In this document: piece after piece, positions 3,946 through 59,525 of the stretch | Numbering within the stretch: the first letter of the stretch is position 1 | Layout of the letters: each line of letters opens with the position of its first letter | Assembly: GCA_003173855.1 (NCBI GenBank) | Contig: PPGI01000010.1 | Location: forward strand, 1 to 60,303 | Origin: Candidatus Zambryskiibacteriota bacterium | GTDB lineage: Bacteria > Patescibacteriota > Minisyncoccia > Phycocordibacterales > DATDWN01 | Length of the DNA stretch: 60,303 bases | Reading direction: 5' to 3' | Translations under genes and position numbers: made by a program | The notes under the pieces: model-generated | What the model was told of the DNA's origin: nothing | Seen by the model: only the letters and a program-made list of their open reading frames with translations | The model's database searches: none

Positions 3946-5956
<2,011 letters not shown>

Positions 5957-8846: not shown

Positions 8847-8863
8847 CGCAAGCTACTCTTTTC
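8840..8863 (+). terminator. Intrinsic terminator-like hairpin
   Basis: AGAGTAGC-GCAA-GCTACTCT followed by T run. Confidence 0.65.
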
Positions 8864-8883
8864 GTTTCTGATATAATTTAGTT

Positions 8884-9393
8884 ATGACTATTCCTCAAAT
8901 TAAAAACAAAGAGCTACACAGAATTACAACAACTACTCTTATTTATAAACCTTATGGAAAAGATTTTAAATATTTAATTACAAAAAGGGCAATGCACAAA
9001 AAAGCTCATCCGGGTATGTGGACTATTCCAGGAGGCGGACTTTCAGTTGATGACTATATAAATACACCTATGAGCGAGCATGGAGAAAACCTTTGGTACA
9101 ATGTACTGGAAAAATCTCTGCATCGGGAAATTAAAGAAGAAGTTGGTTTAGAAATTGGTACACCAAAACTTATTGTTGATCTAACATTTATCAGACCCGA
9201 TGGTATTCCTGTTATTTGTTTTAGTATGTACACACCGTACGTTTCTGGAGAAGTTGATATCGGAAATGATCCTGAGGGAGATACGACAGATTTTGCTTGG
9301 GTGACATTGGAAGAAGCGAAAAAATATGATTTGATACCTGGGATTTGGGATGAAATACGTCAGGTAGATGAAATCCTAAAAAATAATAAATAA
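8884..9393 (+). CDS. NUDIX hydrolase
   Basis: PGMWTIPGG...SLHREIKEEVGLEI. Confidence 0.85.
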   Translation: MTIPQIKNKELHRITTTTLIYKPYGKDFKYLITKRAMHKKAHPGMWTIPGGGLSVDDYINTPMSEHGENLWYNVLEKSLHREIKEEVGLEIGTPKLIVDLTFIRPDGIPVICFSMYTPYVSGEVDIGNDPEGDTTDFAWVTLEEAKKYDLIPGIWDEIRQVDEILKNNK

Positions 9394-19468: not shown

Positions 19469-19618
19469 CAGTGAACGTAGTGAAAACTGCGAAGAGGCGG
19501 ACTAGCTTTCGAAGAAAGCGTAAGTCGATTCGAAACCCGATTGAGATATTTTGGAGCTTGCGAGAAAATATCCAATTGGGGTACTGAAACTGTAAGTTTC
19601 GAATCTCGCCCTCTCCGC
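19449..19618 (+). repeat. tRNA 3'-end direct duplication (21 bp) bracketing a ~130-bp palindromic insert
   Basis: ttcgaatctcgccctctccgc at 19449-19469 and 19598-19618. Confidence 0.9.
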
Positions 19619-19670
19619 TATTTGATTTTAAATATCAACTATAGTATTTTTAAAATAGAAAGGAGCACTT

Positions 19671-19901
19671 ATGGGACATACGTGGAGAGAATTGGATCCA
19701 GCTGGGGCTGAGGCTCACAACAAAAGAATAGAAAGGTTGTTAAATCTGCAGAAAAAAATTGGCGATTCGCCTCTAAGCGAATTCACAGTAAATGAATTCG
19801 GTTCTATTATGAGAATCATGGGTTGGCAACATAATTCTGCAGGACAAGTAGAACCTTATGAATCCGACTTCGTACGCCTTGAGAGCAAAGTCATAAAATA
19901 A
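19671..19901 (+). CDS. Hypothetical protein (orphan)
   Basis: SD aggag; followed by perfect 16-bp inverted repeat 19912-19949. Confidence 0.6.
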   Translation: MGHTWRELDPAGAEAHNKRIERLLNLQKKIGDSPLSEFTVNEFGSIMRIMGWQHNSAGQVEPYESDFVRLESKVIK

Positions 19902-19989
19902 AAACTTAGTTCTTTTAAAATCCATTGATTAATTTCAATGGATTTTAAAATTTATGGACAGAAAAGTTTTTTTAATAGATAATGGCCGA

Positions 19990-24851: not shown

Positions 24852-25862
24852 ATGACACTGATTGGAAAAGCAAGTCCCGAAGATATGAATCTCCACCCAC
24901 TGAACTACAAGTGGGCATACGAACTTTACAATCAAGCAGTTAGAAACACATGGTTTCCTCACGAAATTGCTCTTAAAGAAGATTTAGACGACTTTGCAAA
25001 GATGACAGATGATGAAAAGCATGCAGTGAAATTTTTAATGGCTTTTTTCAATCCTGCAGAGCTAATTGTAAATCGTTCCATTGCACTTGGGATCTATCCA
25101 TATCTAAAATCTCCAGAATGTCATCTTTATTTAGCAAAGCAAATGTGGGAAGAAGCAAATCACTGTGTTGCTTTTGAATATGTGCTTGAGACATTCCCAT
25201 TTGATCGAACTACTGTTTTCAATACTCACCTTGAGGTGCCTTCAATGATTGCTAAGGAAGTTTACATTAACAAGTACATGAAGCGAATGACTGACGACAG
25301 GCTCGATATCTCAACTGTGGATGGCAAAAAAGACTTTATTCGCAATCTTGTAGCAACCAATATTGTTATGGAGGGTGTTTGGTTTTATTCTGGCTTCATG
25401 GTTGCTCTATCATTTCGTCAGAGAAATCAGTTGCGAAATTTTGGTTCGATGATCAACTGGGTGCTACGAGATGAGTCACTTCACCTTAAATTTGGAATAA
25501 ATCTAATTCACAATATTTTAGAAGAAAATACAGAACTTTTGACAGAAGAGTTTGCAGCAGAAATTCGAAACATCATTATTGAAGGAGTGGATCTTGAAGT
25601 TAATTACAACAAAGACCTTTTTCCAAACGGAATTCTGGGATTAAATGCTGATTATGTAAACCAATACGTGCAGTACGTTGCCGACAGGCGATTGCAGGAG
25701 CTTGGAATGCCAAAATATTACAATGTAACCAATCCCGCAAAATGGATGTCAACTGCAACTGATGTTTTTGAATTGGTTAACTTTTTTGAATCGCAAAATA
25801 CAAGCTATGAGGTTGATTCACACGCATCAACTAAGAAAGAAACTCCTAGCGTCGCTGAATAG
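24852..25862 (+). CDS. nrdB: Ribonucleotide reductase small subunit, class Ic-type
   Basis: PAELIV, EEANHCVAF, MEGVWFYSGF, RDESLH, NFFE..NTSY. Confidence 0.93.
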   Translation: MTLIGKASPEDMNLHPLNYKWAYELYNQAVRNTWFPHEIALKEDLDDFAKMTDDEKHAVKFLMAFFNPAELIVNRSIALGIYPYLKSPECHLYLAKQMWEEANHCVAFEYVLETFPFDRTTVFNTHLEVPSMIAKEVYINKYMKRMTDDRLDISTVDGKKDFIRNLVATNIVMEGVWFYSGFMVALSFRQRNQLRNFGSMINWVLRDESLHLKFGINLIHNILEENTELLTEEFAAEIRNIIIEGVDLEVNYNKDLFPNGILGLNADYVNQYVQYVADRRLQELGMPKYYNVTNPAKWMSTATDVFELVNFFESQNTSYEVDSHASTKKETPSVAE

Positions 25863-25981
25863 AACTTCCCAATTTGGCCAATTTCTTTGTCGCAGGCTCC
25901 GTTTGCTCCCGCGCAGTATTTTTTATACAGCTTGGTCGCAATACTCGCTTGCTTCGCGAACTTGTCTCAAATTTGAAAGTT
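25863..25981 (+). repeat. Palindromic intergenic element, family 1 subgroup
   Basis: Inverted ends aacttcccaatttgg / caaatttgaaagtt; core shared with the 21139-21269 element. Confidence 0.8.
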
Positions 25982-26002
25982 TGTGGTGACTTTTAAATTA
26001 AC

Positions 26003-26030
26003 TTGACAGGAAAATTTAACATGCTATACT
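26003..26030 (+). promoter_or_regulatory. Sigma70 promoter
   Basis: TTGACA-16 nt-TATACT with TG extension. Confidence 0.7.
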
Positions 26031-26034
26031 TTGG

Positions 26035-26302
26035 TTGTTCAGGTAGTTCTACCAAGCTTCATCTGAACAATTGAGCCTTCAAAAAGCTTGGTTTCCTAGT
26101 AGACAAATTAGTTTACTAGCCGCGGATTACGATCCACCGGTACCGTGGGCAAGTTGACAGAGTGGTACGTTGGAAGTGGCAACCCCCAACGTAAAAATAT
26201 CTTGTTTCTTGAGGTTCCGGATTTGGTGGAGTTGCCCACGCGAATCCGGAACAGCTGCAGTTCTTTCGTTTCGTTTATCGCTCCGCGCTCCGGAGCTTTT
26301 TT
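26035..26302 (+). ncRNA. Candidate structured non-coding RNA (unassigned)
   Basis: Starts at the predicted TSS, five or more stems, predicted pseudoknot, ends in GCTCCG/CGGAGC + T6 terminator; no SD-led ORF. Confidence 0.65.
26280..26302 (+). terminator. Intrinsic terminator
   Basis: GCTCCG-CGCTC-CGGAGC-TTTTTT. Confidence 0.7.
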
Positions 26303-26360
26303 CTTGACTAAATTTTAATATTAGAGAAGATAAGAAAAGAAAGTTCCGAAAGGAGATGTT

Positions 26361-26524
26361 ATGAGCGAAGGGATGGTCGTCAGCCAGCTGATCCTTACTC
26401 TGAAAAAATCAAAAGACAGATCGCTGAGGAAGATGATTCTGAACTCTTACGTGAGATTGTGAGAGAAAATATTGGCCATGTATCACTTGAGTGTGAGTGG
26501 CCTCCCGAATTTCTCGACGAATGA
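26361..26524 (+). pseudogene. Small orphan ORF, probably frameshifted
   Basis: aggag-ATG frame stops at 26462; the other frame (DGRQPADPY..EFLDE) runs to 26524 just before hairpin GCCTGGTG/CACCAGGC. Confidence 0.4.
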
Positions 26525-26592
26525 ACTACGAGCCTGGTGTATATGCACCAGGCTTCGCTTTTGATATAATTTTTACATAATTAAAAAAATTC

Positions 26593-27612
26593 ATGGCTAA
26601 AATAAAAGTTGCTATAAACGGTTTTGGAAGAATTGGTCGAGCATTTCTCAAAGAATCTTGGGCAAGAGATGAACTTGAGGTCGTCGCAGTTAATGACTTG
26701 GGAAATCTCGAAAATATGGCATATCTTTTAAAATACGACACTGTTTATCGAAATTGGAATCATGACGTTAGAGTTTCTGGCGAAGATCTAGTTATTGATG
26801 GACGCAAAGTAAAATTTGTTTCGGAAAAAGAGCCAACAAAATTGCCATGGCGAGATTTAGGCATTGATGTGGTTGTCGAATCGACAGGACTTTTTACTTC
26901 GTATGACAAAGCTAAAGTTCATATTGATGCAGGGGCTAAACGTGTAGTTATTTCTGCTCCAGCAAAAGGCGAAGGAGATGTAAAAGGTGAGACAATTCTT
27001 TTGGGCATAAACGAGGATAAGTTTGGCACTTGCGAGATTACTTCCAATGCCTCGTGCACAACAAATGCAGCATCGCCATTGCTTTCGATTTTGGACGAAA
27101 AACTAGGAATTGAGAAAGCAATCTTAAATACAGTGCATGGTTATACTGCAAGCCAAGCCCTGGTTGATGGACCATCAAAAAAAGATCTACGTGAAGGTCG
27201 TGCTGCTGCTCAAAATATTGTGCCCTCGTCAACTGGAGCAGCTATTGCTGTAACAAAAGCTTTTACGAAATTGGAAGGTTTGTTTGACGGAATCTCTATT
27301 AGGGTACCAGTTCCTGTTGGTTCAATTGTTGATGTTACGTTTATTTCTAAAAAACAGACTTCTGCCGAAGAAGTAAATAATATTTTACGCGAAGCTGCTA
27401 AAGACTCACGTTGGAAAAATATTTTCTCAGCAACTGATGAAGAGCTGGTTTCCTCTGATATTTTAGGCAGTCATTATGGCTCAATTGCAGATTTGAAAAT
27501 GACACGAGTTGTCGACAAAAATCTGGTCAAAGTTATGGCTTGGTATGACAACGAAGCAGGCTACACCTATACTTTAGTTCAACACGTTATAAAAACAGGT
27601 TCTACAATTTAG
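26593..27612 (+). CDS. gap: Glyceraldehyde-3-phosphate dehydrogenase, type I
   Basis: INGFGRIGR, SNASCTTN, STGAA, WYDNE. Confidence 0.97.
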   Translation: MAKIKVAINGFGRIGRAFLKESWARDELEVVAVNDLGNLENMAYLLKYDTVYRNWNHDVRVSGEDLVIDGRKVKFVSEKEPTKLPWRDLGIDVVVESTGLFTSYDKAKVHIDAGAKRVVISAPAKGEGDVKGETILLGINEDKFGTCEITSNASCTTNAASPLLSILDEKLGIEKAILNTVHGYTASQALVDGPSKKDLREGRAAAQNIVPSSTGAAIAVTKAFTKLEGLFDGISIRVPVPVGSIVDVTFISKKQTSAEEVNNILREAAKDSRWKNIFSATDEELVSSDILGSHYGSIADLKMTRVVDKNLVKVMAWYDNEAGYTYTLVQHVIKTGSTI

Positions 27613-28725: not shown

Positions 28726-28762
28726 ATTGCCTAAGAAATTATAGGGCGTATAATTATTTTAA

Positions 28763-29662
28763 ATGTCCATTAACTTAACTGATGAAAAAATAAAGTTCCT
28801 TGAAGAAAAAGCAAAAGATATTCGCATTTCGATAATCGAAATGCTTGTAGCTGCTGGTTCCGGACATTCTGCTGGACCTCTTGGTATGGCAGATATTTTT
28901 GCCACACTTTATTTTTTTATTTTGCGGCATGATCCAAAAAAACCAGATTGGGAAGGACGCGACAGGCTAATTCTTTCAAATGGTCATATAAACCCAGTTT
29001 TATATTCAACAATGGCCCATGCTGGTTATTTTCCTGTTGCAGAACTTTTGACATTACGGAAATTTGGTACACGTTTGCAGGGTCATCCTCACCGCGAATA
29101 TCTTCCGATGCTAGAGACATCATCTGGCCCGCTTGGTTCGGGGCTTTCACAAGCTGTTGGTATGGCAATTGCTGACAGAATGGATCACGGAAAAACCTCG
29201 GACAGATTTTTTTATTGCTTAATGTCAGATGGTGAGCTAGATGAGGGACAAAGTTGGGAAGCAATGCTTCTTGCTGCGCGAGAAAAACTTGGCAATTTAA
29301 TTGTAATAGTTGACCGAAACAATATTCAAATTGATGGCAACACAGAAGATGTGATGCCTTTGGAAAAATTGTCGCACAAATTCGAAAGTTTTAATTTCCA
29401 TGTCGAAGAAATTGATGGTCATGACTATCGTGCAATTGCTGAAGCTGTTGGCCGAGCTCAAGCGGTTTTTGATGGGCCATCAGTGATTATTGCGAGGACT
29501 ATTCCAGGGAAAGGAGTGTCATTTATGGAACGAGATTACAAGTGGCATGGTTCTCCGCCGGGAACAGAGATGGCAGGTGAGCCGCCAAAAGACGAACAGG
29601 CAAAGATTGCATTGCATGATCTTAGAACTTTAGGAGGACAAATAACAAGTGAACACGAATGA
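28763..29662 (+). CDS. Transketolase N-terminal (TPP-binding) subunit
   Basis: SGHSAG, RDRLILSNGH, LQGHP, SGPLGSGLS, SDGELDEGQSWEA, KWHG. Confidence 0.95.
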   Translation: MSINLTDEKIKFLEEKAKDIRISIIEMLVAAGSGHSAGPLGMADIFATLYFFILRHDPKKPDWEGRDRLILSNGHINPVLYSTMAHAGYFPVAELLTLRKFGTRLQGHPHREYLPMLETSSGPLGSGLSQAVGMAIADRMDHGKTSDRFFYCLMSDGELDEGQSWEAMLLAAREKLGNLIVIVDRNNIQIDGNTEDVMPLEKLSHKFESFNFHVEEIDGHDYRAIAEAVGRAQAVFDGPSVIIARTIPGKGVSFMERDYKWHGSPPGTEMAGEPPKDEQAKIALHDLRTLGGQITSEHE

Positions 29663-31064: not shown

Positions 31065-31214
31065 GACTTTAATAAATTTTAGTATTTAATTAAACCAGAA
31101 CTTTTATTTACCAAAATTCTTTGGTAAATGGTATTTTATTTGGAAGGAGAAAAGATAACAAAAGTATCAGCCTAACAGGTTTGCCGCGCACGAAATATGT
31201 GCGCGGTTCGTCTT

Positions 31215-32204
31215 TTATATTGTCTTTATTTTATAAATTTCAGGAGCCTTGTTTAAAAATTCTTCTAATTTTTCTCTTGATAAGAGGCCTTTTTGAGCAC
31301 CGACTTGAAGCACAACTGACATGGCATTAATTGGTCCCCAAGTTAGAGCTTCTTCGATTGATTTGCCAACAGTAAGTGCTGAAATTATTGTAGAAAAGAA
31401 AGCGTCACCGGCACCAGTTCTCTCAAAAGGTGTGTGAGGGTACACGGGAATAAACAAATATAAGTCCCGATCTTTCTCATATGCATATGCTCCTTCAAAA
31501 CCATCGGTAATAAAAACGTATTTTGGTCCGAGATTGGACATTTCTTTCAGTAGTTTTTTAACATCGCGATCTTTTTCTCCCAGTATTCTTTGCGCTTCCT
31601 CGACATTTATACAAATTGCATTAGCTTGAGAATAAATAAAAGAAAGTTTTTCCTTTCCTTGCTTCATGTCAAAAACTCCTGGTTGAAAAGCAAGATTAAT
31701 ATTTGGATGGGCTTGTAAATATTTTGAAATTTGCTGGTACATTTCAAATGAATGCTCACCAAGAGAGCTTAGATAAATCCATTTTGGTTCACCGATGTCT
31801 CCCAATTGGTAATTGAACTGTTCGTGTTTGACTAGAATTGTTCTGTCAACATCGTACCAGAGCACGTAGTGATAGTTTGTTTTCTTTCCATCTTCTGTTC
31901 GAACAAAATCAAGGTTTACATTGTTTGATTTAAGCGACTCAATACAATCTTTGCCGTTTTGATCATTGCCAACGTATGTTAAAAGCGCTGAATTGAGTCC
32001 AAGTCGTGCTGCTGAAACTGAGGCGTTTGCTGCATTTCCAACGGCATTGCAAATTTCAACAGATTCATATGGGACTTTGTCGCCATATCGAACAGCTAGT
32101 TTGCAGTTTTGTTTATTTTCATCACAGATAACTTCCACATCTTGAAGTTTAATAAATGCATCAATCACTACATCTCCGATAGCCAGAATTTCTAAGTTTG
32201 CCAT
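31215..32204 (-). CDS. PfkB-family carbohydrate kinase
   Basis: VGNAANASVSAARLG, ITDG.EGA, ERTGAGDAF. Confidence 0.9.
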   Translation of the reverse strand: MANLEILAIGDVVIDAFIKLQDVEVICDENKQNCKLAVRYGDKVPYESVEICNAVGNAANASVSAARLGLNSALLTYVGNDQNGKDCIESLKSNNVNLDFVRTEDGKKTNYHYVLWYDVDRTILVKHEQFNYQLGDIGEPKWIYLSSLGEHSFEMYQQISKYLQAHPNINLAFQPGVFDMKQGKEKLSFIYSQANAICINVEEAQRILGEKDRDVKKLLKEMSNLGPKYVFITDGFEGAYAYEKDRDLYLFIPVYPHTPFERTGAGDAFFSTIISALTVGKSIEEALTWGPINAMSVVLQVGAQKGLLSREKLEEFLNKAPEIYKIKTI

Positions 32205-35358: not shown

Positions 35359-35390
35359 AAACAAGTCTTTTTTGGTAGTGTATTTGAGCA

Positions 35391-35654
35391 ATGAAAAAGG
35401 AAATACATCCACAAAATTACAGACCAGTCCTATTTATCGACAACTCAAATGACGCAGAGTTCGTTATTTCATCAACTGTAAATACGACCGAAACTGGTAA
35501 GGCAAAGGATGGCAAAACATATCCACTATATAGGCTTGAAATCACAAGTGCTTCGCATCCATTTTATACTGGAACAGAAAAGGCACTCGACACCGCAGGA
35601 AGAGCAGAACGGTTCCGAGCAAAGCAAGCTAAATCACAGAAATCAAAAAAATAA
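35391..35654 (+). CDS. rpmE2: 50S ribosomal protein L31 type B (Zn-free)
   Basis: MKKEIHP.NY, LEITSASHPFYTG, DTAGR.ERF; no Cys. Confidence 0.95.
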   Translation: MKKEIHPQNYRPVLFIDNSNDAEFVISSTVNTTETGKAKDGKTYPLYRLEITSASHPFYTGTEKALDTAGRAERFRAKQAKSQKSKK

Positions 35655-35752
35655 CCTCATCTACTTTGTTGCAGTTCAATTTTTCTCGTTCACCTTACTA
35701 CATGTAAGGCTCACTCGAAAAATTTCCTGCGCCTAGTATCTGAGGCTATTTT
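35648..35752 (+). repeat. Palindromic intergenic element, family 1
   Basis: cctcat..gttgcagttc..tttttctc.ttcacc..ctcactcg..tcctgcgcctag.atctgaggc, collinear with 7569-7687. Confidence 0.9.
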
Positions 35753-35787
35753 ATTAATTTCTGATTATTACTTGTATAATTAATTGA

Positions 35788-41450: not shown

Positions 41451-43354
41451 TGAAAATATCGTACAAATGGTTAAAAGAATATATCGTTGAACCTTTGCCG
41501 CCAATAAATAAGTTGGTCGACAATTTAACAATGCACTCGTTTGAAATTGAAAGTGTTGAAGAGCAAGGTGATGACAAAATTCTAGATGTGAAAGTTCTTC
41601 CAAATCGTGCACACGATTGCCTTTGTCATTATGGGGTTGCTCTTGAAGCGGCAGCTTTAACTGGATTGACTCCGCGCTGGACGCTTCCTCACCAGCCATT
41701 TTCTCCATTTGATGGAATCGAGTTAAATATTGATACAAAAAAATGTAAACGTGCGGTAATGGTCCACATTAAAGATTTGAAAGTCGGTCGAAGTCCAGCG
41801 TGGCTTAAAGAAAAAATAGCAATATACGGACTAAAAAGTATAAATTCTGTTGTCGATCTTACAAATTATTTGATGTATGCCTATGGACAGCCGATGCATG
41901 CTTTTGATGCTGAAAAAATTTCAAAAAATGCAAGTGGCCAATTTGAAATCACAATTCGCAATGCCGAGCCGGGCGAAAAAATTACATTACTTAATAAAAA
42001 AGAATACGCACTTGATCCTTCAATGACGGTTATTGCGGATTCAAAGAACGCACTTGATGTAGCAGGTGTAATGGGAGGACTTTCTTCGGGTGTTACAACA
42101 TCAACAAAAGAAATTATTCTTTCACTTTCGAATTTCAACGCAGTATCGATTCGAAAAACTGCAAAAGCTTTAGGAATTAGGACTGATGCCTCAACACGCT
42201 TTGAAAACGAAATTTCAGAGAGTTTGATTGATCGATCACTTCCGTTTGCACTTAAAATGATTAGTGAAATCGCAAAAGGAAAATTTGTCGGTGGTGTTGA
42301 TATAAATCAAGATCCACAAAAAGAAATAATAGTTCCAACTTCAGTTAGTCAAATAAATAACATTCTAGGTTTAGATTTAAAAAGAGAAGCAATTGTTGGA
42401 ATACTTGGAAAACAGAGATTAATTTCAGATAAAAAAGGTGACGATTTAGAAATCAAAATTCCTCCTGAGAGGCTCGATCTTACTATTCCAGAAGATATTG
42501 CTGAAGAAGTCGGCAGACTTTATGGTTTCGATCAGATCCAATCTTCTGAGCTTAATGTTTTGCAGACCGTGATGGTCAATCGAGAAAATTATTTTTCTTA
42601 TTTCTTGCGAGAATTATTAATAAAGCAAGGATTTTCTGAAGTTTATACTTATGGATTTACCGATAGTGGGGAAGTTGAAATTGAAAATCCTTTAGCTTCT
42701 GACAAAAAATTTGTACGAGCAGATTTAAGGGAAGGTATGGAAGCGTCGCTTGTATTCAATTTTAAATATATAGATTTCTTGGGTCTTAAGGAAATTAAAA
42801 TATTTGAAATTGGAAAAGTCTTTAAAAAATCTGGAGAAGTCTTGCATTTGTCTTTAGGCACAAAGTTTCCTAAAAGCAAAAATAAACATCAAGATGATGA
42901 GGAAGTCGCACGTATCATTCGTTTGATTGACGAAACTTTCGGAGCCCCACTCAAAGGGATTTCAATCGTAGGCGGTGTAGCGGAAATTGATTTTCAAAAA
43001 ATTATTTCCGAGACCAAACTTAAACCCGATCTCAAAAATTTGCCAAAAAGCGAAACGAAAAAAATCGATTACAAACCAATTTCTCCATATCCATTTGCTA
43101 TTCGTGATGTGGCTGTTTTCGTTCCAAAAGAAACTTCAAAATCTCAAATTAAAACTATTATTGAAAAACACTTAACTTCAATTGTGCATAGCTTCTCGCT
43201 TTTTGATGTTTTTGAAAAAGAAGACAAAACCTCATACGCTTGGCGTCTTGTTTTTCAGTCTCAAGAAAAAACTTTAACTGATGAGGAAATAAATTCTGTT
43301 ATGGACTCGATTTACGAAGATCTGAAATCTCAAAAAGATTTTGAAATACGATAA
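41450..43354 (+). CDS. pheT: Phenylalanine-tRNA ligase beta subunit (no B2 domain)
   Basis: [49 protein letters not shown]-terminal FDX-ACB. Confidence 0.95.
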   Translation: MKISYKWLKEYIVEPLPPINKLVDNLTMHSFEIESVEEQGDDKILDVKVLPNRAHDCLCHYGVALEAAALTGLTPRWTLPHQPFSPFDGIELNIDTKKCKRAVMVHIKDLKVGRSPAWLKEKIAIYGLKSINSVVDLTNYLMYAYGQPMHAFDAEKISKNASGQFEITIRNAEPGEKITLLNKKEYALDPSMTVIADSKNALDVAGVMGGLSSGVTTSTKEIILSLSNFNAVSIRKTAKALGIRTDASTRFENEISESLIDRSLPFALKMISEIAKGKFVGGVDINQDPQKEIIVPTSVSQINNILGLDLKREAIVGILGKQRLISDKKGDDLEIKIPPERLDLTIPEDIAEEVGRLYGFDQIQSSELNVLQTVMVNRENYFSYFLRELLIKQGFSEVYTYGFTDSGEVEIENPLASDKKFVRADLREGMEASLVFNFKYIDFLGLKEIKIFEIGKVFKKSGEVLHLSLGTKFPKSKNKHQDDEEVARIIRLIDETFGAPLKGISIVGGVAEIDFQKIISETKLKPDLKNLPKSETKKIDYKPISPYPFAIRDVAVFVPKETSKSQIKTIIEKHLTSIVHSFSLFDVFEKEDKTSYAWRLVFQSQEKTLTDEEINSVMDSIYEDLKSQKDFEIR

Positions 43355-43377
43355 AAGGCGCATCTCGCTGCGCCTTT
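43354..43377. terminator. Bidirectional terminator between convergent genes
   Basis: AAAGGCGCA-TCTCGC-TGCGCCTTT. Confidence 0.7.
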
Positions 43378-43398
43378 AGATGAACCTGTTTGTTTGGA

Positions 43399-43628
43399 TT
43401 AACCCCATTGTCTGGTATGGCCACAGACTTTGCATTTCCAGTAATTTCCACCAACCAATGTGTGCTCAGTGACCTTGAGCATTTCAGTGACTGTTTTTCG
43501 CACGATGCTCATTTGTCCTCACTCATATTGGGTGTTGACATTCCCTTTTCGCGATCATATGCGGAGTACAATTTATTGCACTTTGATCCTTCACAGCAAA
43601 GTTGCACGACTTTTAGAGTTTGGTCCAT
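43399..43628 (-). pseudogene. Small Cys/His-rich protein split into 39-aa and 37-aa ATGA-overlapping ORFs (not in ORF track)
   Basis: ggagg SD; MDQTLKVVQLCCEGSKCN..SEDK* (43509-43628) and MSIVR..HTLVGGNYWKCKVCGHTRQWG* (43399-43512). Confidence 0.55.
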
Positions 43629-43689
43629 GCACCCTCCAATTTTCTTGTAGAAATATATGATTTTCATGTAATTTGTCAAATAAACAAAA

Positions 43690-44054: not shown

Positions 44055-44174
44055 TCAGCACCTCTTGTAAAATAATATAATATTCCTTAAAAATGTCAAG
44101 GTATTTTAGACCACAAAATTAGCTGAATTTCTCTTGTGAAGAGAGCCTGAATTTGCTATAATTTAATCAACAAA

Positions 44175-46235
44175 ATGGCTGAAAAAACCGCTAAAAATAA
44201 AGCTTACAGCGCAGAATCGATCCAGGTGCTTGAAGGACTAGAACCTGTAAGAAAACGACCAGGAATGTACATTGGAACAACTGGTACTGATGGACTCCAC
44301 CATTTGATCTGGGAAATTTTTGACAACGCTCGTGATGAAGCAATGGGAGGCTTTGCAAATGATATCGAAGTAACACTTCTCCCTGGTAATCGTGTGCGAG
44401 TAACTGACAACGGACGAGGCATCCCGGTTGATATTCATAAGCAAACAAAAGTTTCTGCGCTAGAAACTATTATGACAACACTTCATGCCGGAGGAAAATT
44501 CGGCGGGGAAGATGGAGGGTACAAAGTTTCTGGAGGTTTGCATGGAGTCGGTGCGTCTGTTGTGAATGCACTTTCAAGCTACTGTAAAGTAACAGTTCAC
44601 AAAGATGGCGGTGAATATGTTCAGGAATACTCTCAAGGCAAGAAAAAAGCCGCTGTTAAAAAAATTGGTTCTACAAAACTATCAGGAACAATTGTTGTCT
44701 TTGAACCAGACAAAGCAATTTTCCCAATCATTGATTTCTCATTTAAACGAGTGGTTGATCATTTGCGTCAACAAGCATATTTGGTCAAAGGTCTTCGCAT
44801 CACTGTAATCGATGCTTCAAAATACGAAGGAAAAATAAAAGAAGAGGATGTTTTTAAAATTTCTGAACTTGGACTTGAGATTCCATCGATGTCATTTTAT
44901 TTTGAAGGCGGTTTGCTTAGCTTAGTGAAGTTTTACAATAGTCCACTTAAACCAATTCACAAAAATATTTTCTATGTTGAGAAAAAAATTAACGAGTATG
45001 AATCAGTGGAAGTGTCACTTCAATATGTTGACGATATTTCTGCTCGAATTTTGGCTTTTGCAAACAACATCCATACTCCAGAAGGAGGTACGCACTTAAC
45101 TGGTTTTAAAACAGCTCTCACTCGAACACTAAACACGTACGGAAGGAAAAATAATTTAATTAAAGAATCAGAAGACAATTTCACCGGTGAGGATGTTTTG
45201 GAAGGTTTAACTGCTGTTATTTCCGTAAAACTTCGAGAAATTCAATTTGAAGGTCAGACAAAAGGCAAACTTGGTACTGTTGAAGCCCAGGGAACAGTAA
45301 ATACAGTTTTCTCTGAAGCATTCACATATTTTCTTGAAGAAAATCCAGACGATGCAAGGGCTATCATAAACAAAGTAGTTCTTGCACTCAAAGCTCGCAA
45401 GGCGGCCAAAGCTGCAAAGGATTCAGTGTTACGAAAAGGAGCACTTGAGGGCATGACACTTCCAGGAAAACTTGCTGATTGTCAGTCAAAGTCAGCTGAA
45501 GATTCAGAACTGTTTATTGTGGAGGGAGATTCTGCTGGTGGAACTGCAAAAACTGGAAGAGATCGACGAACACAAGCGATATTGCCGCTTCGAGGAAAAA
45601 TTCTAAACATTGAACGAGCTCGACTTGATCGAATGCTTGAATCAGAACAAATTAAAAATCTTGTCATTGCATTGGGAACTGCAATAGGAGATACATTTGA
45701 TATTTCAAAACTTCGCTATCACAAAATTATTATTGCAACAGATGCTGACGTTGACGGTGCTCACATACGAACTTTGATTCTAACTTTGCTTTACAGATTC
45801 TTTAGACCTTTGATTGATGGTGGATATATTTACATTGCTCAACCACCACTTTATAAAATCAAAAAGGGAAAAGAAATTCACTACGCATATTCAGATGATG
45901 AGAAAGCAAAAGTTGTAGGAAAAGACGAAGTTGAGGAAGCTACAGAACCACAGCCAGAGGAAGAAGTTGCCGAAGTTGAAGAAGCTGAAAAAGATGAGAA
46001 AAAAACAACGAAGAAATCAAAAGTTTCAATCCAGCGCTACAAAGGTTTGGGTGAAATGAATGCTGAAGAACTTTGGGAGACAACTATGGATCCAGAGAGA
46101 CGAATCCTAAAACAAGTAACAATCGAAGATGGAGTGGCTGCTGATAAAGTCTTCGATATCTTAATGGGAACTGACGTCCCAGCCAGAAAATCTTTTATTC
46201 AAAGCAATGCAACCAAAGCAAATTTGGATGTATAA
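44175..46235 (+). CDS. gyrB: DNA gyrase subunit B
   Basis: LEGLEPVRKRPGMYIG, SGGLHGVGASVVNALS, VEGDSAGG, LPLRGK, TDADVDG, QRYKGLGEM. Confidence 0.97.
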   Translation: MAEKTAKNKAYSAESIQVLEGLEPVRKRPGMYIGTTGTDGLHHLIWEIFDNARDEAMGGFANDIEVTLLPGNRVRVTDNGRGIPVDIHKQTKVSALETIMTTLHAGGKFGGEDGGYKVSGGLHGVGASVVNALSSYCKVTVHKDGGEYVQEYSQGKKKAAVKKIGSTKLSGTIVVFEPDKAIFPIIDFSFKRVVDHLRQQAYLVKGLRITVIDASKYEGKIKEEDVFKISELGLEIPSMSFYFEGGLLSLVKFYNSPLKPIHKNIFYVEKKINEYESVEVSLQYVDDISARILAFANNIHTPEGGTHLTGFKTALTRTLNTYGRKNNLIKESEDNFTGEDVLEGLTAVISVKLREIQFEGQTKGKLGTVEAQGTVNTVFSEAFTYFLEENPDDARAIINKVVLALKARKAAKAAKDSVLRKGALEGMTLPGKLADCQSKSAEDSELFIVEGDSAGGTAKTGRDRRTQAILPLRGKILNIERARLDRMLESEQIKNLVIALGTAIGDTFDISKLRYHKIIIATDADVDGAHIRTLILTLLYRFFRPLIDGGYIYIAQPPLYKIKKGKEIHYAYSDDEKAKVVGKDEVEEATEPQPEEEVAEVEEAEKDEKKTTKKSKVSIQRYKGLGEMNAEELWETTMDPERRILKQVTIEDGVAADKVFDILMGTDVPARKSFIQSNATKANLDV

Positions 46236-49484: not shown

Positions 49485-49488
49485 AAGT

Positions 49489-49514
49489 AGCGCCGCACGC
49501 ACGCGGCGCTTTTA
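49489..49514 (+). terminator. Intrinsic terminator
   Basis: AGCGCCGC-ACGCAC-GCGGCGCT-TTT. Confidence 0.7.
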
Positions 49515-49556
49515 AATTATAAAAAAATTTGCAATAATTACTTACCGGAGGTTCTT

Positions 49557-49817
49557 ATGCGAGAAAAAGATTTTCCGCCGAAGATTAAGGTTCCAGATGG
49601 TGGTGGGTTGGTGTTCATGCTTTATGGTTACCTTCTTGTCATCGTTGGAGCAATTGTCATCTTGGCAATTGTAACTATCGCTCTTGTCATCGCTGGGTTC
49701 AAATATCTTGCACTGTTCGGTGCAGTTTGTGTTGGTGTTGGACTTGCACTTGCCAATGAAGGAGGTAAGAGATTGAAAAAAGCCAAACTAGAAGAAAAAT
49801 CTAGTAAGGCAGCCTGA
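49557..49817 (+). CDS. Small two-TM hypothetical protein
   Basis: SD ggagg; hydrophobic hairpin; basic C-terminus. Confidence 0.65.
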   Translation: MREKDFPPKIKVPDGGGLVFMLYGYLLVIVGAIVILAIVTIALVIAGFKYLALFGAVCVGVGLALANEGGKRLKKAKLEEKSSKAA

Positions 49818-49854
49818 AGCCGTTGTTGCATGAATTCGCAATAACGGCTTTTTA

Positions 49855-49976
49855 AATTCGAAAAATTTTTGCTTAAGTTCGAGGCGGAATGAGAAAATGT
49901 GAGGAGCCTTACAAAATGTTAGGTGACGAGTATTTTTGAAATTCCAACGATGAAATTAAGCAAAAAGATTCGAATT
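49855..49976 (-). repeat. Palindromic intergenic element, family 1
   Basis: IR aattcgaaaaatttttgcttaa / ttaagcaaaaagattcgaatt overlapping the dnaE stop; reverse complement core ctcgtcacc..tgtaaggctc matches 35686-35712. Confidence 0.8.
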
Positions 49977-53208: not shown

Positions 53209-53308
53209 ATTTTGGCTATTATATCACGCAATATTTAAATCAACTTCGATTGACTAAATCGATTTTTTCGGTCAAAATACCTATCAGAACCTCATTCGTG
53301 GAGGACAC

Positions 53309-53530
53309 ATGCTTCGAGTTGTTGAAACAGTGGTTATTACAATCGTTTGGGCAGTTTGGGGTGCTCCAGGTGCAGTGTTTTTTATCCATCTCATTCGTGG
53401 ACCAAAGAAGAAAAAGGAACCTTCGTATTTGTTTCTTTTTGTTCTCTATGTCTTCACGATGATCAGCAGACCATCTGCCTCGAGACCACGCCTAGTGTGG
53501 CCGCCCGAAAAAAGTAAACAGATCCACTAG
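53309..53530 (+). CDS. Small membrane hypothetical protein
   Basis: SD ggagg; two hydrophobic segments; terminator AGAGCCGC/GCGGCTCT at 53537-53559. Confidence 0.55.
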   Translation: MLRVVETVVITIVWAVWGAPGAVFFIHLIRGPKKKKEPSYLFLFVLYVFTMISRPSASRPRLVWPPEKSKQIH

Positions 53531-53579
53531 GATTTGAGAGCCGCGCGTGCGGCTCTTTTCGTTATGATAAAATATTTGT

Positions 53580-56017: not shown

Positions 56018-56142
56018 AAAGAGACTTCGCAGGCCGAGAGCTCGGTCTTGTCAACGTCCGGCTTGCTGGCTCATTGACAAGTCGGAGAGCCGAGAACAAG
56101 TTAGCAAAGCGCTGGCGGAGCGAACGGTTTCTTTTTAAGATA
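56010..56142. repeat. Palindromic intergenic element (family 3), GC-rich interior
   Basis: IR TATCTTAAAAAGAGAC / GTTTCTTTTTAAGATA (15 of 16) overlapping the nusB stop; internal cttgtcaa/ttgacaag hairpin. Confidence 0.8.
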
Positions 56143-56157
56143 TAGCGAGTGATTTAA

Positions 56158-57237: not shown

Positions 57238-57281
57238 AAACCCTCCGTTTTTAGCTTAGCAAATGATATAATTAACTCCAA

Positions 57282-59525
57282 ATGTATTTAAAATCGATTG
57301 AATTATCAGGATTTAAGTCATTTGCGAAAAAGGTGGAGCTTACATTTAACTCAAAAGTTTCAGCTATTGTCGGACCAAATGGTTCTGGGAAATCAAACAT
57401 TGCTGAAGCCTTTCGATTTGTACTTGGTGAGCAGTCAATCAAATCACTTCGCGGGAAAAAAGGTGAAGATCTGATTTTTAATGGTGCTGGAGATTTGCCT
57501 CGGGCAAATCGTGCGTCGGTTAAAGTAACTTTTGATAATTCATCTAAGTTTTTGCCAATTGATTTTGATGAGGTAACAATTGAACGTGTTGTTCACCGCG
57601 ATTCTGTAAACGAGTATTTAATAAATGGTTCGCAAGTAAGACTTAAAGATGTAGTTGAGCTTTTAGGAAGTGCGCATATTGGTGCATCTGGGCACCACAT
57701 AATTTCGCAAGGTGAAGCAGATCGAATTTTGAATGCATCAATCAAGGAGCGAAAAGCAATGATTGAAGATGCTCTGGGACTTAAAATGTATCAGTACAAA
57801 AAAATTGAAAGTGAAAGAAAGTTAGAAAAAACTCGAGAAAATATTAAGCAAGTTGAAAGTTTGCGAAGAGAAATTGCTCCACATTTAAAATTTTTAAAAA
57901 AGCAGGTTGAGAAAGTTGAGAAATCAATCCAAATGAAAGATGAGTTAACCAAGGAAGCTAAGGAATATTTAAAACGGGAGGATGATTATATTAAACAAAC
58001 TGAAGCACATATTAATAATGAAAAAGCTCCACTTCTAAAAAAGGAAAAGGAACTAGAGAAAGAATTGAACGATGCAAAACATGTTTTAGAAAAAGCGAAA
58101 AATAAAGATGTTAAAAGTGAGGAGTTAATCGAACTTGAAAAAAGTTTGCACAATATACGGGATGAAAAAGATTCACTATCACGCGATTTTGGAAGACTGG
58201 ATGGGGAACTTTCGTCACTCGTGAAAATTGTTAAAAAGCAGGAGGAAATTGCTCATTCAAGTGAACATAAAACAGTAACACTTGTTTCAGTTGAACAACT
58301 ATCGACAAAAATTGAAGATAGAGTAAATAATGCAAAATCATCAAATGATGTTTCTGTATTAATTAAAACTCTTGATGAAGTAGCTCTATTAGTTTCAGAT
58401 TTTATTGATCGAAATAAAGAAAAAATTGATAACTCACTGATCGTAGATGCTCAAAGAGATATCGAAACTCTCAGGAAATCAAAAAAACAAATTGAGAAAA
58501 CACTAGAGGAAATCAGGGAAAAAGAAGAAGAATTTACGACAAGATACAATTCATTAAAATCAGAAATTGAAAAAGAAAAGGATCGTAATAGAGATGCCGA
58601 AAAAGCTGTTTTTCGAATAATGGCCGAATCCCAGGAAGTTCGCTCAAAATTACATGATCTGGATTCAAAACAGAATAATTTAAATTTAGTTAAGGAAGAT
58701 TACAGGCGAGAACTAACAGAGCTCGGACACTTGTTGGGACAATATATTTTGGATTTTAAAAACCTAGATTTTGATTATAACGAGCCAAGATCAAATCAAG
58801 AAGAACGCAGAAGAAAAATTGAAAAAATAAAAATTCGACTGGAGGATTCTGGTGGTATTGGTGCGACAGATGTTATGAAAGAATTTAGCGAAGCGACTGA
58901 CCGAGATCAATTTTTGGAAAAAGAACTTGTTGATTTGGATAAGTCAGCGACATCACTTACTGAATTAATTACTGATTTGGATAATAGATTATCTACAGAA
59001 TTTAAAACGGGAGTTGAAAAAATAAACCATCAATTTCGAGAATATTTTGCTCTTATGTTTGGTGGGGGAGATGCAAAGCTTTCGGTTACAGTTGCTCCAA
59101 AGAAAAAGAAAAAAGATACAGATATTCCACTGGATGAAGATTTGGAAACGGAAGATATTGAAGAATCCGAAGAAGGTATTGATATTGATGTTAATTTGCC
59201 GAAGAAAAAAGTAAAAGGTCTGATGATGTTGTCAGGAGGTGAAAGAGCGCTAACATCAATTGCGCTTCTCTTTGCAATTTCTCAAGTAAATCCACCACCG
59301 TTTATTATTTTAGATGAAACTGATGCCGCGCTTGATGAAGCAAATTCTAAAAAATATGGAGATATGGTTGAAAGCCTTTCAAGTCGTTCTCAACTTATTG
59401 TTATTACTCATAACCGCGAAACAATGTCTCGGGCTGGAATTCTTTATGGTATAACAATGGGTTCGGGAGGAGGGTCGAAATTATTAAGCGTCGCCTTCGA
59501 TGAAGCAGTTGCTGTCGCCAAATAA
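57282..59525 (+). CDS. smc: SMC-family ATPase, short (747 aa)
   Basis: MYLKSIELSGFKSF, GPNGSGKSN Walker A, ISQG Q-loop, LSGGE signature, ILDETDAALD Walker B/D-loop, ITH. Confidence 0.9.
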   Translation: MYLKSIELSGFKSFAKKVELTFNSKVSAIVGPNGSGKSNIAEAFRFVLGEQSIKSLRGKKGEDLIFNGAGDLPRANRASVKVTFDNSSKFLPIDFDEVTIERVVHRDSVNEYLINGSQVRLKDVVELLGSAHIGASGHHIISQGEADRILNASIKERKAMIEDALGLKMYQYKKIESERKLEKTRENIKQVESLRREIAPHLKFLKKQVEKVEKSIQMKDELTKEAKEYLKREDDYIKQTEAHINNEKAPLLKKEKELEKELNDAKHVLEKAKNKDVKSEELIELEKSLHNIRDEKDSLSRDFGRLDGELSSLVKIVKKQEEIAHSSEHKTVTLVSVEQLSTKIEDRVNNAKSSNDVSVLIKTLDEVALLVSDFIDRNKEKIDNSLIVDAQRDIETLRKSKKQIEKTLEEIREKEEEFTTRYNSLKSEIEKEKDRNRDAEKAVFRIMAESQEVRSKLHDLDSKQNNLNLVKEDYRRELTELGHLLGQYILDFKNLDFDYNEPRSNQEERRRKIEKIKIRLEDSGGIGATDVMKEFSEATDRDQFLEKELVDLDKSATSLTELITDLDNRLSTEFKTGVEKINHQFREYFALMFGGGDAKLSVTVAPKKKKKDTDIPLDEDLETEDIEESEEGIDIDVNLPKKKVKGLMMLSGGERALTSIALLFAISQVNPPPFIILDETDAALDEANSKKYGDMVESLSSRSQLIVITHNRETMSRAGILYGITMGSGGGSKLLSVAFDEAVAVAK

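Follow-up and report, generated by a model that had tools for sequence, protein, structure and literature searches.

The window analyzed here, 60,303 nt in length, is a chromosome segment from the Patescibacteria (candidate phyla radiation, CPR; Paceibacteria-like) with a G+C content of about 37.6%. Within it, a 730-nt spacer lies between nrdB (24852–25862) and gap (26593–27612), with nrdA situated upstream and rpiB, rpe, and tkt downstream. This spacer holds a candidate non-coding RNA of about 266 nt (26037–26302, + strand), which would run from a predicted start at G26037, placed 7 nt past a −10 box, to the U-tract of an intrinsic terminator, T1. Following it, in order, are a Shine–Dalgarno (SD) sequence with a small open reading frame (ORF), another terminator, T2, and the extended −10 box of gap itself. 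A first-pass annotation made from the letters alone had proposed an independent RNA gene at this locus, and all of the helices it listed, along with its promoter and terminator, were found where it had placed them. Bracketed by these two signals, the stretch probably does encode a genuine small RNA or the leader of an mRNA; more specifically, though with somewhat less than even confidence, we read it as a young, species-specific terminated non-coding RNA with a second role as leader for the small ORF.

Promoter, terminator, and predicted fold

The sigma-70-type promoter P1 (26003–26030, + strand), described beforehand as near-consensus, takes the form TTGACA-16-TGcTATACT, with 11 of 12 positions matched and the TG of an extended −10. 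Sites matching at 11 of 12 positions number five in the window versus about 1.9 in shuffled sequences, and the three that also carry the TG are all intergenic and all on the + strand, with the other two lying directly upstream of genes. From P1 onward, 324 nt pass without an ATG, which is atypical for an mRNA here, since the norm in this window is a −10 box placed 7–13 nt before the ATG. In fact, TATAAT-like boxes end at this distance in 12–14 of the operon-first genes, the usual promoter form being TGnTATAAT (for instance, at 8859–8886, 28737–28765, 31204–31240 on the − strand, 44140–44177, and 57255–57284), and an SD-like sequence accompanies just 8 of 50 window genes. With TGnTATAAT standing so close to the ATG and SD sequences being rare, most mRNAs of the host organism seem to have no leader or a very short one.

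At the other end, terminator T1 (26280–26302, + strand) consists of a G+C-rich 6-bp stem (26280–26296) with a 5-nt loop and the T6 run noted by the first-pass annotation, and it resembles the terminator-like sites with at least 5 G–C pairs that mostly occupy gene ends in the window. Between the two signals, all six frames are closed and no SD sequence is found, and the tested frames gave no match in Pfam or PADLOC. By sequence prediction, then, the stretch has the promoter, the terminator, and the lack of a plausible ORF by which a stand-alone small RNA (sRNA) is recognized. Moreover, the 266 nt contain no ATG at all, where 4.4 would be expected (P ~0.009). An alternative genetic code was considered and rejected, as TAA and TAG stops persist in every frame.

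The stretch is also unusually rich in structure. For positions 26031–26305 on the + strand, the minimum free energy (MFE) is −95.3 kcal/mol (z = −3.79), and none of 200 dinucleotide shuffles was as stable. Perfect 9-nt inverted repeats occur four times versus 0.11 expected, and 8-nt ones nine times versus 0.44. The G+C content reaches 47.7% (98th percentile among 270-nt windows), and the highest 150-nt G+C peak of all intergenic regions in the window falls in the nrdB–gap spacer. In addition, 6-bp palindromes number 11 in the 266 nt as opposed to 4.0 expected (P = 0.004). Eight of them are G+C-rich (CCGCGG, ACCGGT, GGTACC, TCCGGA three times, CAGCTG, and CTGCAG), a count that is the window maximum against a mean of 0.8, and CCGCGG occurs nowhere else within the 60 kb. 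Some of these palindromes are a consequence of palindromic stem arms, as with the three copies of UCCGGA (one of them in T1) and two of AAGCUU, while others (ACCGGU/GGUACC and CAGCUG/CUGCAG) fall in predicted single strands; the excess could reflect self-association, a DNA-level signature, or nothing. A synthetic construct, which the many restriction-type palindromes had brought to mind, was rejected, as the flanking DNA has orthologous counterparts in natural relatives.

The fold was computed on an RNA starting at G26037, with pair probabilities (p) drawn from a nested-folding ensemble, and four hairpins (H2 to H5) and T1 are each predicted with p of at least 0.97. Hairpin H2 (26096–26119), CUAGUAGAC-AAAUUA-GUUUACUAG, has 9 bp (p = 1.00) and abuts H3 (26120–26148), whose outer stem, closed by CCGCGG/CCGUGG, has p = 0.99 and which includes the palindromes ACCGGU and GGUACC. 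The GGAU-UACG-AUCC hairpin of the first-pass annotation (26124–35) lies inside H3 and, while present in the sequence, is out-competed by the CCGCGG/CCGUGG-closed stem (p ~0). Further along, H4 (26166–26193), UACGUUGG/CCAACGUA, forms 8 bp (p = 0.99) around a 12-nt loop with GGCAAC, and H5 (26214–26252), GUUCCGGAUU/AAUCCGGAAC, is built from perfect 10-nt arms (26214–23/26243–52; p = 1.00) with an inner GGUGG/CCAC extension and GUUGCCCACG in its loop. T1 itself has p = 0.97 in the 266-nt RNA. The pairings CTAGTAGAC/GTTTACTAG and TACGTTGG/CCAACGTA are present as well.

At the 5′ end, the fold is less settled. The proposed first helix (26035–44/26061–70) exists, yet a start at G26037 removes its first two bases, which leaves hairpin H1 (26037–26068) with 8 bp including one G–U; CTAGTAGAC/GTTTACTAG likewise has a single G–U pair. 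The low p of H1, only 0.16, arises because in nested folding it competes with the perfect 9-nt complement ACCAAGCUU/AAGCUUGGU (26051–59/26084–92; p = 0.80). These two helices are able to coexist solely as an H-type pseudoknot, an arrangement that loops of 6, 1, and 15 nt would accommodate. As for loop–loop contacts, the H5 loop is complementary to the H4 loop over 6 nt (−7.8 kcal/mol) and, more extensively, to 26144–52 (−15.2 kcal/mol), with 26144–52 and 26232–40 making up a perfect 9-nt inverted repeat. With this 9-bp helix formed, H5 could probably not remain intact, because just 2 nt separate position 26240 from the 3′ arm of H5. Both the kissing-loop pairing and GTGGGCAA/TTGCCCAC amount to complementarity with p ~0. 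Accurate as the first-pass annotation was about the complementarities themselves, the pseudoknot and the GCAAC/GTTGC kissing loop are unsupported possibilities drawn from a single sequence.

Relatives and the nrdB–gap spacer

To place the candidate among known RNAs, we searched Rfam 15 with the whole window, which at gathering threshold returned 4 tRNAs only and at E ≤ 1 nothing in the nrdB–gap spacer. For 25850–26600, relaxing the cutoff to E ≤ 10 gave noise only, with no relevant family over the RNA body. ARAGORN likewise reported tRNAs and no transfer-messenger RNA (tmRNA) in the window. The earlier statement that the RNA bears no hallmarks of RNase P, tmRNA, signal recognition particle (SRP) RNA, or T-box families is thereby borne out, and the 6S, riboswitch, and ribozyme models gave no match either. 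RNase P, SRP, and 6S RNAs were rejected individually for want of a closing helix and of their motifs, a T-box for want of a model match despite a GUGGUAC string, and group II intron domain V for want of any match. In the literature, we found no description of CPR-specific non-coding RNAs.

Homologs in CPR genomes, whose collection had been suggested at the outset, were sought in 84 related CPR loci, among them 80 gathered through the highly conserved NrdB (GTDB), and none was found by blastn, nhmmer, or R1, a covariance model built from this single sequence. In particular, neither blastn nor nhmmer matched the RNA in the 80 loci, and R1 gave self-hits only, both in 1.37 Mb from related loci and, with filters off, in 3 more loci and the whole window. 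Distant blastn searches of phage and plasmid records found nothing, and exact-pattern scans of IMG/VR were empty or gave one chance 18-mer within a coding region. A three-block pattern scan of JGI metagenomes produced 2 matches, both GC-rich REP-like repeats otherwise dissimilar to the RNA. The GC-rich repeated palindrome in question, GGGTGGGCAAATTCGCC...GGTGGCAAC...AATTTGCCCACC...GTTGCCCAC, is shared by two contigs of JGI metagenome Ga0209466 (L082, 1926–2012, and L083, 484–578 on the − strand), and represents a chance pattern match unrelated to the RNA. Because these large scans demand exact matches, diverged homologs may have been missed. No second copy of the RNA was found in the 60 kb of the source genome that the window covers or in the 1.37 Mb of related loci, and the insert has no convincing terminal inverted or direct repeats; within this scope, an element of the REP, BIME, or MITE type was rejected.

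In contrast to the RNA, the promoter behind nrdB can be followed into relatives. Upstream of P1 is a conserved 25-nt motif, CAAATTTGAAAGTTTGTGGTGACTT (25968–25992, + strand), that occurs once in the window and that recurs behind nrdB in two related loci, L086 and L085, each time upstream of an extended −10 promoter. With L086, the window shares the nrdB 3′ flank, the motif, and a −10 of TGCTATA(A/C)T, the counterpart of P1 being TGCTATAAT. In that locus, the −10 ends 6 nt ahead of the gap ATG, and gap is apparently leaderless for that reason. L085 has the motif alone in common with the window; its promoter (−10 TGATATAGT) leads to a 69-codon membrane ORF and a terminator, and then comes gap. 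From this comparison of sequences, the promoter behind nrdB is seemingly older than its cargo: in relatives, it drives either gap itself or a gene for a small membrane protein. In the form CTCAAATTTGAAAGTTYGTGGT, the motif, of about 25 nt, recurs in related CPR intergenic regions, mostly just 5′ of an extended −10 and at variable spacing (window 25968–25992; L086 2954–2978, 4739–4763, and ~1703–1727 on the − strand; L085 ~89–103; L003 ~5106–5120 on the − strand); it might be bound by a regulator or form part of a promoter module that is portable.

The closest relatives, as judged from GAPDH (86–89% identity), have far shorter spacers. On the nearest, a fully syntenic 470-kb JGI contig, 122 nt separate nrdB and gap, and other close relatives have 138 and 153 nt. 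Because the nearest relatives have just 122–153 nt at this site, the RNA is part of an insert specific to its lineage. The DNA becomes similar to that of relatives again at about 26560, and roughly 560 nt comprising the RNA, T1, the small ORF, T2, and a second promoter would have been placed between the conserved promoter and gap, the alternative being loss in the relatives. Across the 80 loci, the nrdB–gap spacer measures anywhere from 38 to 3289 nt, being empty or occupied by assorted small genes, which makes it a hot spot for accessory cargo. Genes for unrelated small membrane or secreted proteins are found in relatives' spacers, for example, at L014 11014–11405, L085 1–518, and L004 6724–8236. 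One 6-kb contig labeled Nitrospira (L001, JBEBJM010000038.1) carries a CPR-type nrdA–nrdB–gap arrangement with an NrdB 94% identical to that of the window and is probably a mis-binned patescibacterial contig.

Possible terminator read-through and the small ORF

Downstream of T1 lies an SD sequence (AAAGGAG) with an orphan 33-codon ORF (26349–26462, + strand; ORF start at 26361), one of the few window genes with a strong SD. No promoter is predicted between T1 and this ORF, and lacking one of its own, the ORF would be expressible by read-through of T1 only. Moreover, because a promoterless, SD-led ORF comes after T1, the RNA may equally be a 5′ leader. The proposal of an independent RNA gene is upheld as regards a non-coding stretch with its own promoter and terminator, but its independence needs qualifying, as the promoter is the conserved one that in relatives serves gap or a small ORF.

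The product of the small ORF has a short hydrophobic stretch of about 11 residues followed by a basic tail. Its −1 frame stays open for another 39 codons to 26525 across an A6 run (26403–08), giving 54 codons if frameshifted, and this continuation could signal a frameshift, a pseudogene, or an assembly error. The ORF has no homolog in the related loci by tblastn, nor by word search, and is unlike the small ORFs in relatives' nrdB–gap spacers. Neither Pfam nor PADLOC contains a match. HMMER searches of 1.84 billion representative proteins gave no meaningful homolog for either version, the sole match, a 1018-residue protein (E 2.8e-6), being read as one of low complexity or repeats. Closing the inserted cassette is T2 (26530–26555, + strand), with an 11-bp stem that includes 6 G–C pairs. 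Thereafter comes the extended −10 of gap, TGaTATAAT (26562–26570, + strand), situated 22 nt before the gap ATG; relatives carry TGnTATAAT before gap as well.

When the read-through transcript (26037–26562) is folded, z falls to −7.4, and T1 is largely lost (p = 0.01), its place being taken by a long imperfect helix (26272–26306/26331–26375) in which the GGAG of the SD sequence is paired with CUCC, and the opening codons of the small ORF with UCGCUC. The ORF half of this RNA is also structured by itself (z = −3.3). On the basis of these models, masking of the SD sequence and start codon in read-through RNA is plausible.

Taken as a sequence of events, RNA polymerase would initiate near G26037, from the extended −10 promoter that is conserved behind nrdB, and the ensuing ~266 nt would fold as five stable stem-loops, possibly along with a 5′ pseudoknot. 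Most transcripts would end at T1, releasing a stable small RNA free of start codons, with read-through serving as the sole route for expression of the small ORF. In the read-through RNA, the T1 sequence would then re-pair with the SD sequence and start codon of that ORF. As such, the element would combine a terminated small RNA with an attenuating, translation-masking leader.

Elsewhere in the window, other regions also stand out. More GC-corrected structure than in the RNA stretch, down to −4.6 standard deviations, is found without an Rfam match at 49485–49974 (+), 35359–35787 (−), 19470–19953, 53209–53579, and 56018–56157; these regions are intergenic and either long or G+C-rich, and may hold additional non-coding RNAs or small genes. 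At 43350–43680 on the − strand, about 300 nt lie between a promoter matching at 11 of 12 positions (43679–43652) and a strong terminator (43377–43354), the sole plausible ORF having 37 codons and a CxxC motif (43399–43512); a second such promoter (44099–44072) precedes a 101-codon ORF. A replication origin at the candidate locus was rejected, the GC skew being monotonic.

Competing explanations and significance

Several results weigh against a terminated non-coding RNA that doubles as a leader. No homolog turned up in any of the collections scanned, and hence there is neither covariation nor a sign of purifying selection. The nearest relatives lack the insert, and none of the six relatives whose contigs were inspected has the RNA. 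Among 1335 windows, the region comes only about 23rd in stability once MFE is regressed on G+C, and the reverse strand folds just as well (z = −3.86). Because both strands fold alike, the assignment to the + strand comes from the promoter and the U-tract of the terminator. Single-sequence folding is, as PMC8250186 explicitly points out, not evidence for conserved structure. Additionally, the local pairing between T1 and the SD sequence is by itself not significant (z = −1.5, equaled by 14 of 200 shuffles), no convincing local antiterminator was found, and the small ORF, being an orphan that is perhaps frameshifted at the A6 run, may mark a cassette in decay.

Foremost among the skeptical alternatives, and one we consider doubtful though by no means negligible, is that the stretch represents non-functional DNA, recently acquired or decaying behind a live promoter, such as the remnant of a mobile element or a small-gene cassette. 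Its restriction to one genome, its position in a spacer that is a hot spot of variable small genes, the frameshifted look of the adjacent orphan ORF, and the densest cluster of GC-rich 6-bp palindromes in the window, perhaps a foreign or DNA-level signature, would all fit with this. However, decay of coding DNA does not yield at least five independent perfect hairpins of 8–10 bp, a clean terminator, and a full depletion of ATG, and the insert lacks the flanking terminal repeats, the second copy expected of REP or MITE families, and any similarity to phages or plasmids. Somewhat less likely, in our estimation, is a purely cis-acting riboswitch or attenuator, with a domain of about 240 nt sensing a ligand, protein, or tRNA to set T1 and thereby turn the small ORF on or off, and the terminated RNA as a by-product. 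Like known attenuating leaders (riboswitches, T-box, and protein-dependent ones), the locus presents a promoter, a long structured domain, a terminator, an SD sequence, and an ORF with no promoter in between, and mutually exclusive alternative pairings can be drawn: the 9-bp pairing of 26144–52 with the H5 loop, which overlaps the H3 stem; the 5′ arm of H5 (26214–21) with the 3′ arm of T1 (26289–96, 8 bp); and CGCGGA (26121–26) with UCCGCG (26282–87). Moreover, the terminator can mask the SD sequence when it re-pairs in read-through RNA. Yet such alternative pairings are about as frequent as chance would have them (an estimated ~0.2–0.9 expected), and none captures the 5′ arm of T1 locally. 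Unlike known leaders, there is neither a riboswitch or T-box model match at E ≤ 10 nor a conserved aptamer, conservation from which to define one being absent, and the regulated gene would be an orphan of 33 codons, perhaps frameshifted, rather than a metabolic or transport gene. For the ribozyme or riboswitch suggested by the first-pass annotation, we find nothing that points to the former or to a ligand-binding form of the latter.

An improbable but more ambitious alternative is a new structured-RNA class of one Paceibacteria lineage, with a 5′ pseudoknot, loop–loop contacts, and perhaps self-association through palindromes (ACCGGU/GGUACC, CAGCUG/CUGCAG, and AAGCUU), acting as a sensor or scaffold for the small ORF and having relatives missed through poor sampling. 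As with the ornate non-coding RNAs (raiA, HEARO, OLE, ROOL, and GOLLD), the candidate is intergenic, has multiple hairpins, and is enriched in G+C although its genome is A+T-rich, with a possible pseudoknot and exposed palindromes that in principle allow self-association, whereas those families are defined by wide conservation and covariation and the candidate has neither a homolog nor an Rfam match; it is also much smaller than OLE, ROOL, and GOLLD. With still less conviction, one might see a toxin–antitoxin-like or defense cassette, either in a type III (ToxIN-like) layout or as the mRNA of a type I-like toxin, inhibited by its long 5′ untranslated region. Here, the promoter, RNA, terminator, and ORF do form one unit in a variable genomic region, the SD sequence and start codon are predicted to be masked in the full-length RNA, and the small ORF has its short hydrophobic stretch and basic tail. 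Against this, the RNA has no tandem repeats, the defining feature of ToxI-type antitoxins, the ORF is far below ToxN-like size, and a longer hydrophobic segment would be needed for the membrane helix of a type I toxin; also, no PADLOC or Pfam defense-family match was obtained and no antisense promoter is predicted. Very unlikely, to our minds, is a cluster of DNA-level palindromic sites for protein binding or recombination rather than an RNA, as might be suggested by the equal folding z-scores of the two strands and by the palindrome excess. All of the palindromes differ, which leaves no repeated operator; the stems hold G–T positions that pair only as + strand RNA; the promoter and U-tract terminator on either side of the region are both in the + orientation; and no recombinase or mobilization gene is among the annotated neighbors. 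Least credible of all is a diverged housekeeping RNA (RNase P, SRP, tmRNA, or 6S) beyond recognition by covariance models. Although 266 nt is close to the length of minimal RNase P RNAs and long SRP RNAs, and divergent RNAs are frequent in CPR genomes, no Rfam match emerged at E ≤ 10 and no tmRNA by ARAGORN, there is no 5′–3′ closing helix or conserved RNase P or SRP motif, and an RNA of this kind would also occur at this site in sister genomes and show up among 84 related loci, neither of which is the case.

The terminated non-coding RNA that we tentatively favor finds its nearest likeness in the species-specific sRNAs with Rho-independent terminators, with which the candidate shares its own promoter, a size in the 50–300-nt range, the lack of an ORF, a stem-loop followed by a U-tract, an intergenic location, and poor conservation. 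It departs from typical base-pairing sRNAs in having, as predicted from sequence, at least five stable hairpins and a possible pseudoknot, and from species-specific sRNAs in being followed by a promoterless, SD-led ORF.

For now, the practical value is limited, as the element resides in a single uncultivated genome. Nevertheless, very few regulatory RNAs have been described from the tiny genomes of the CPR, or Patescibacteria, and if the proposed reading is true, a strongly promoted and structured RNA of 266 nt would be a rare case of RNA-based regulation in this group. The locus also offers a natural experiment, in that one promoter leads to gap directly in one relative, to a small membrane protein in another, and here to an RNA. 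Should this hold, it would show a new RNA arising through insertion behind a conserved promoter.

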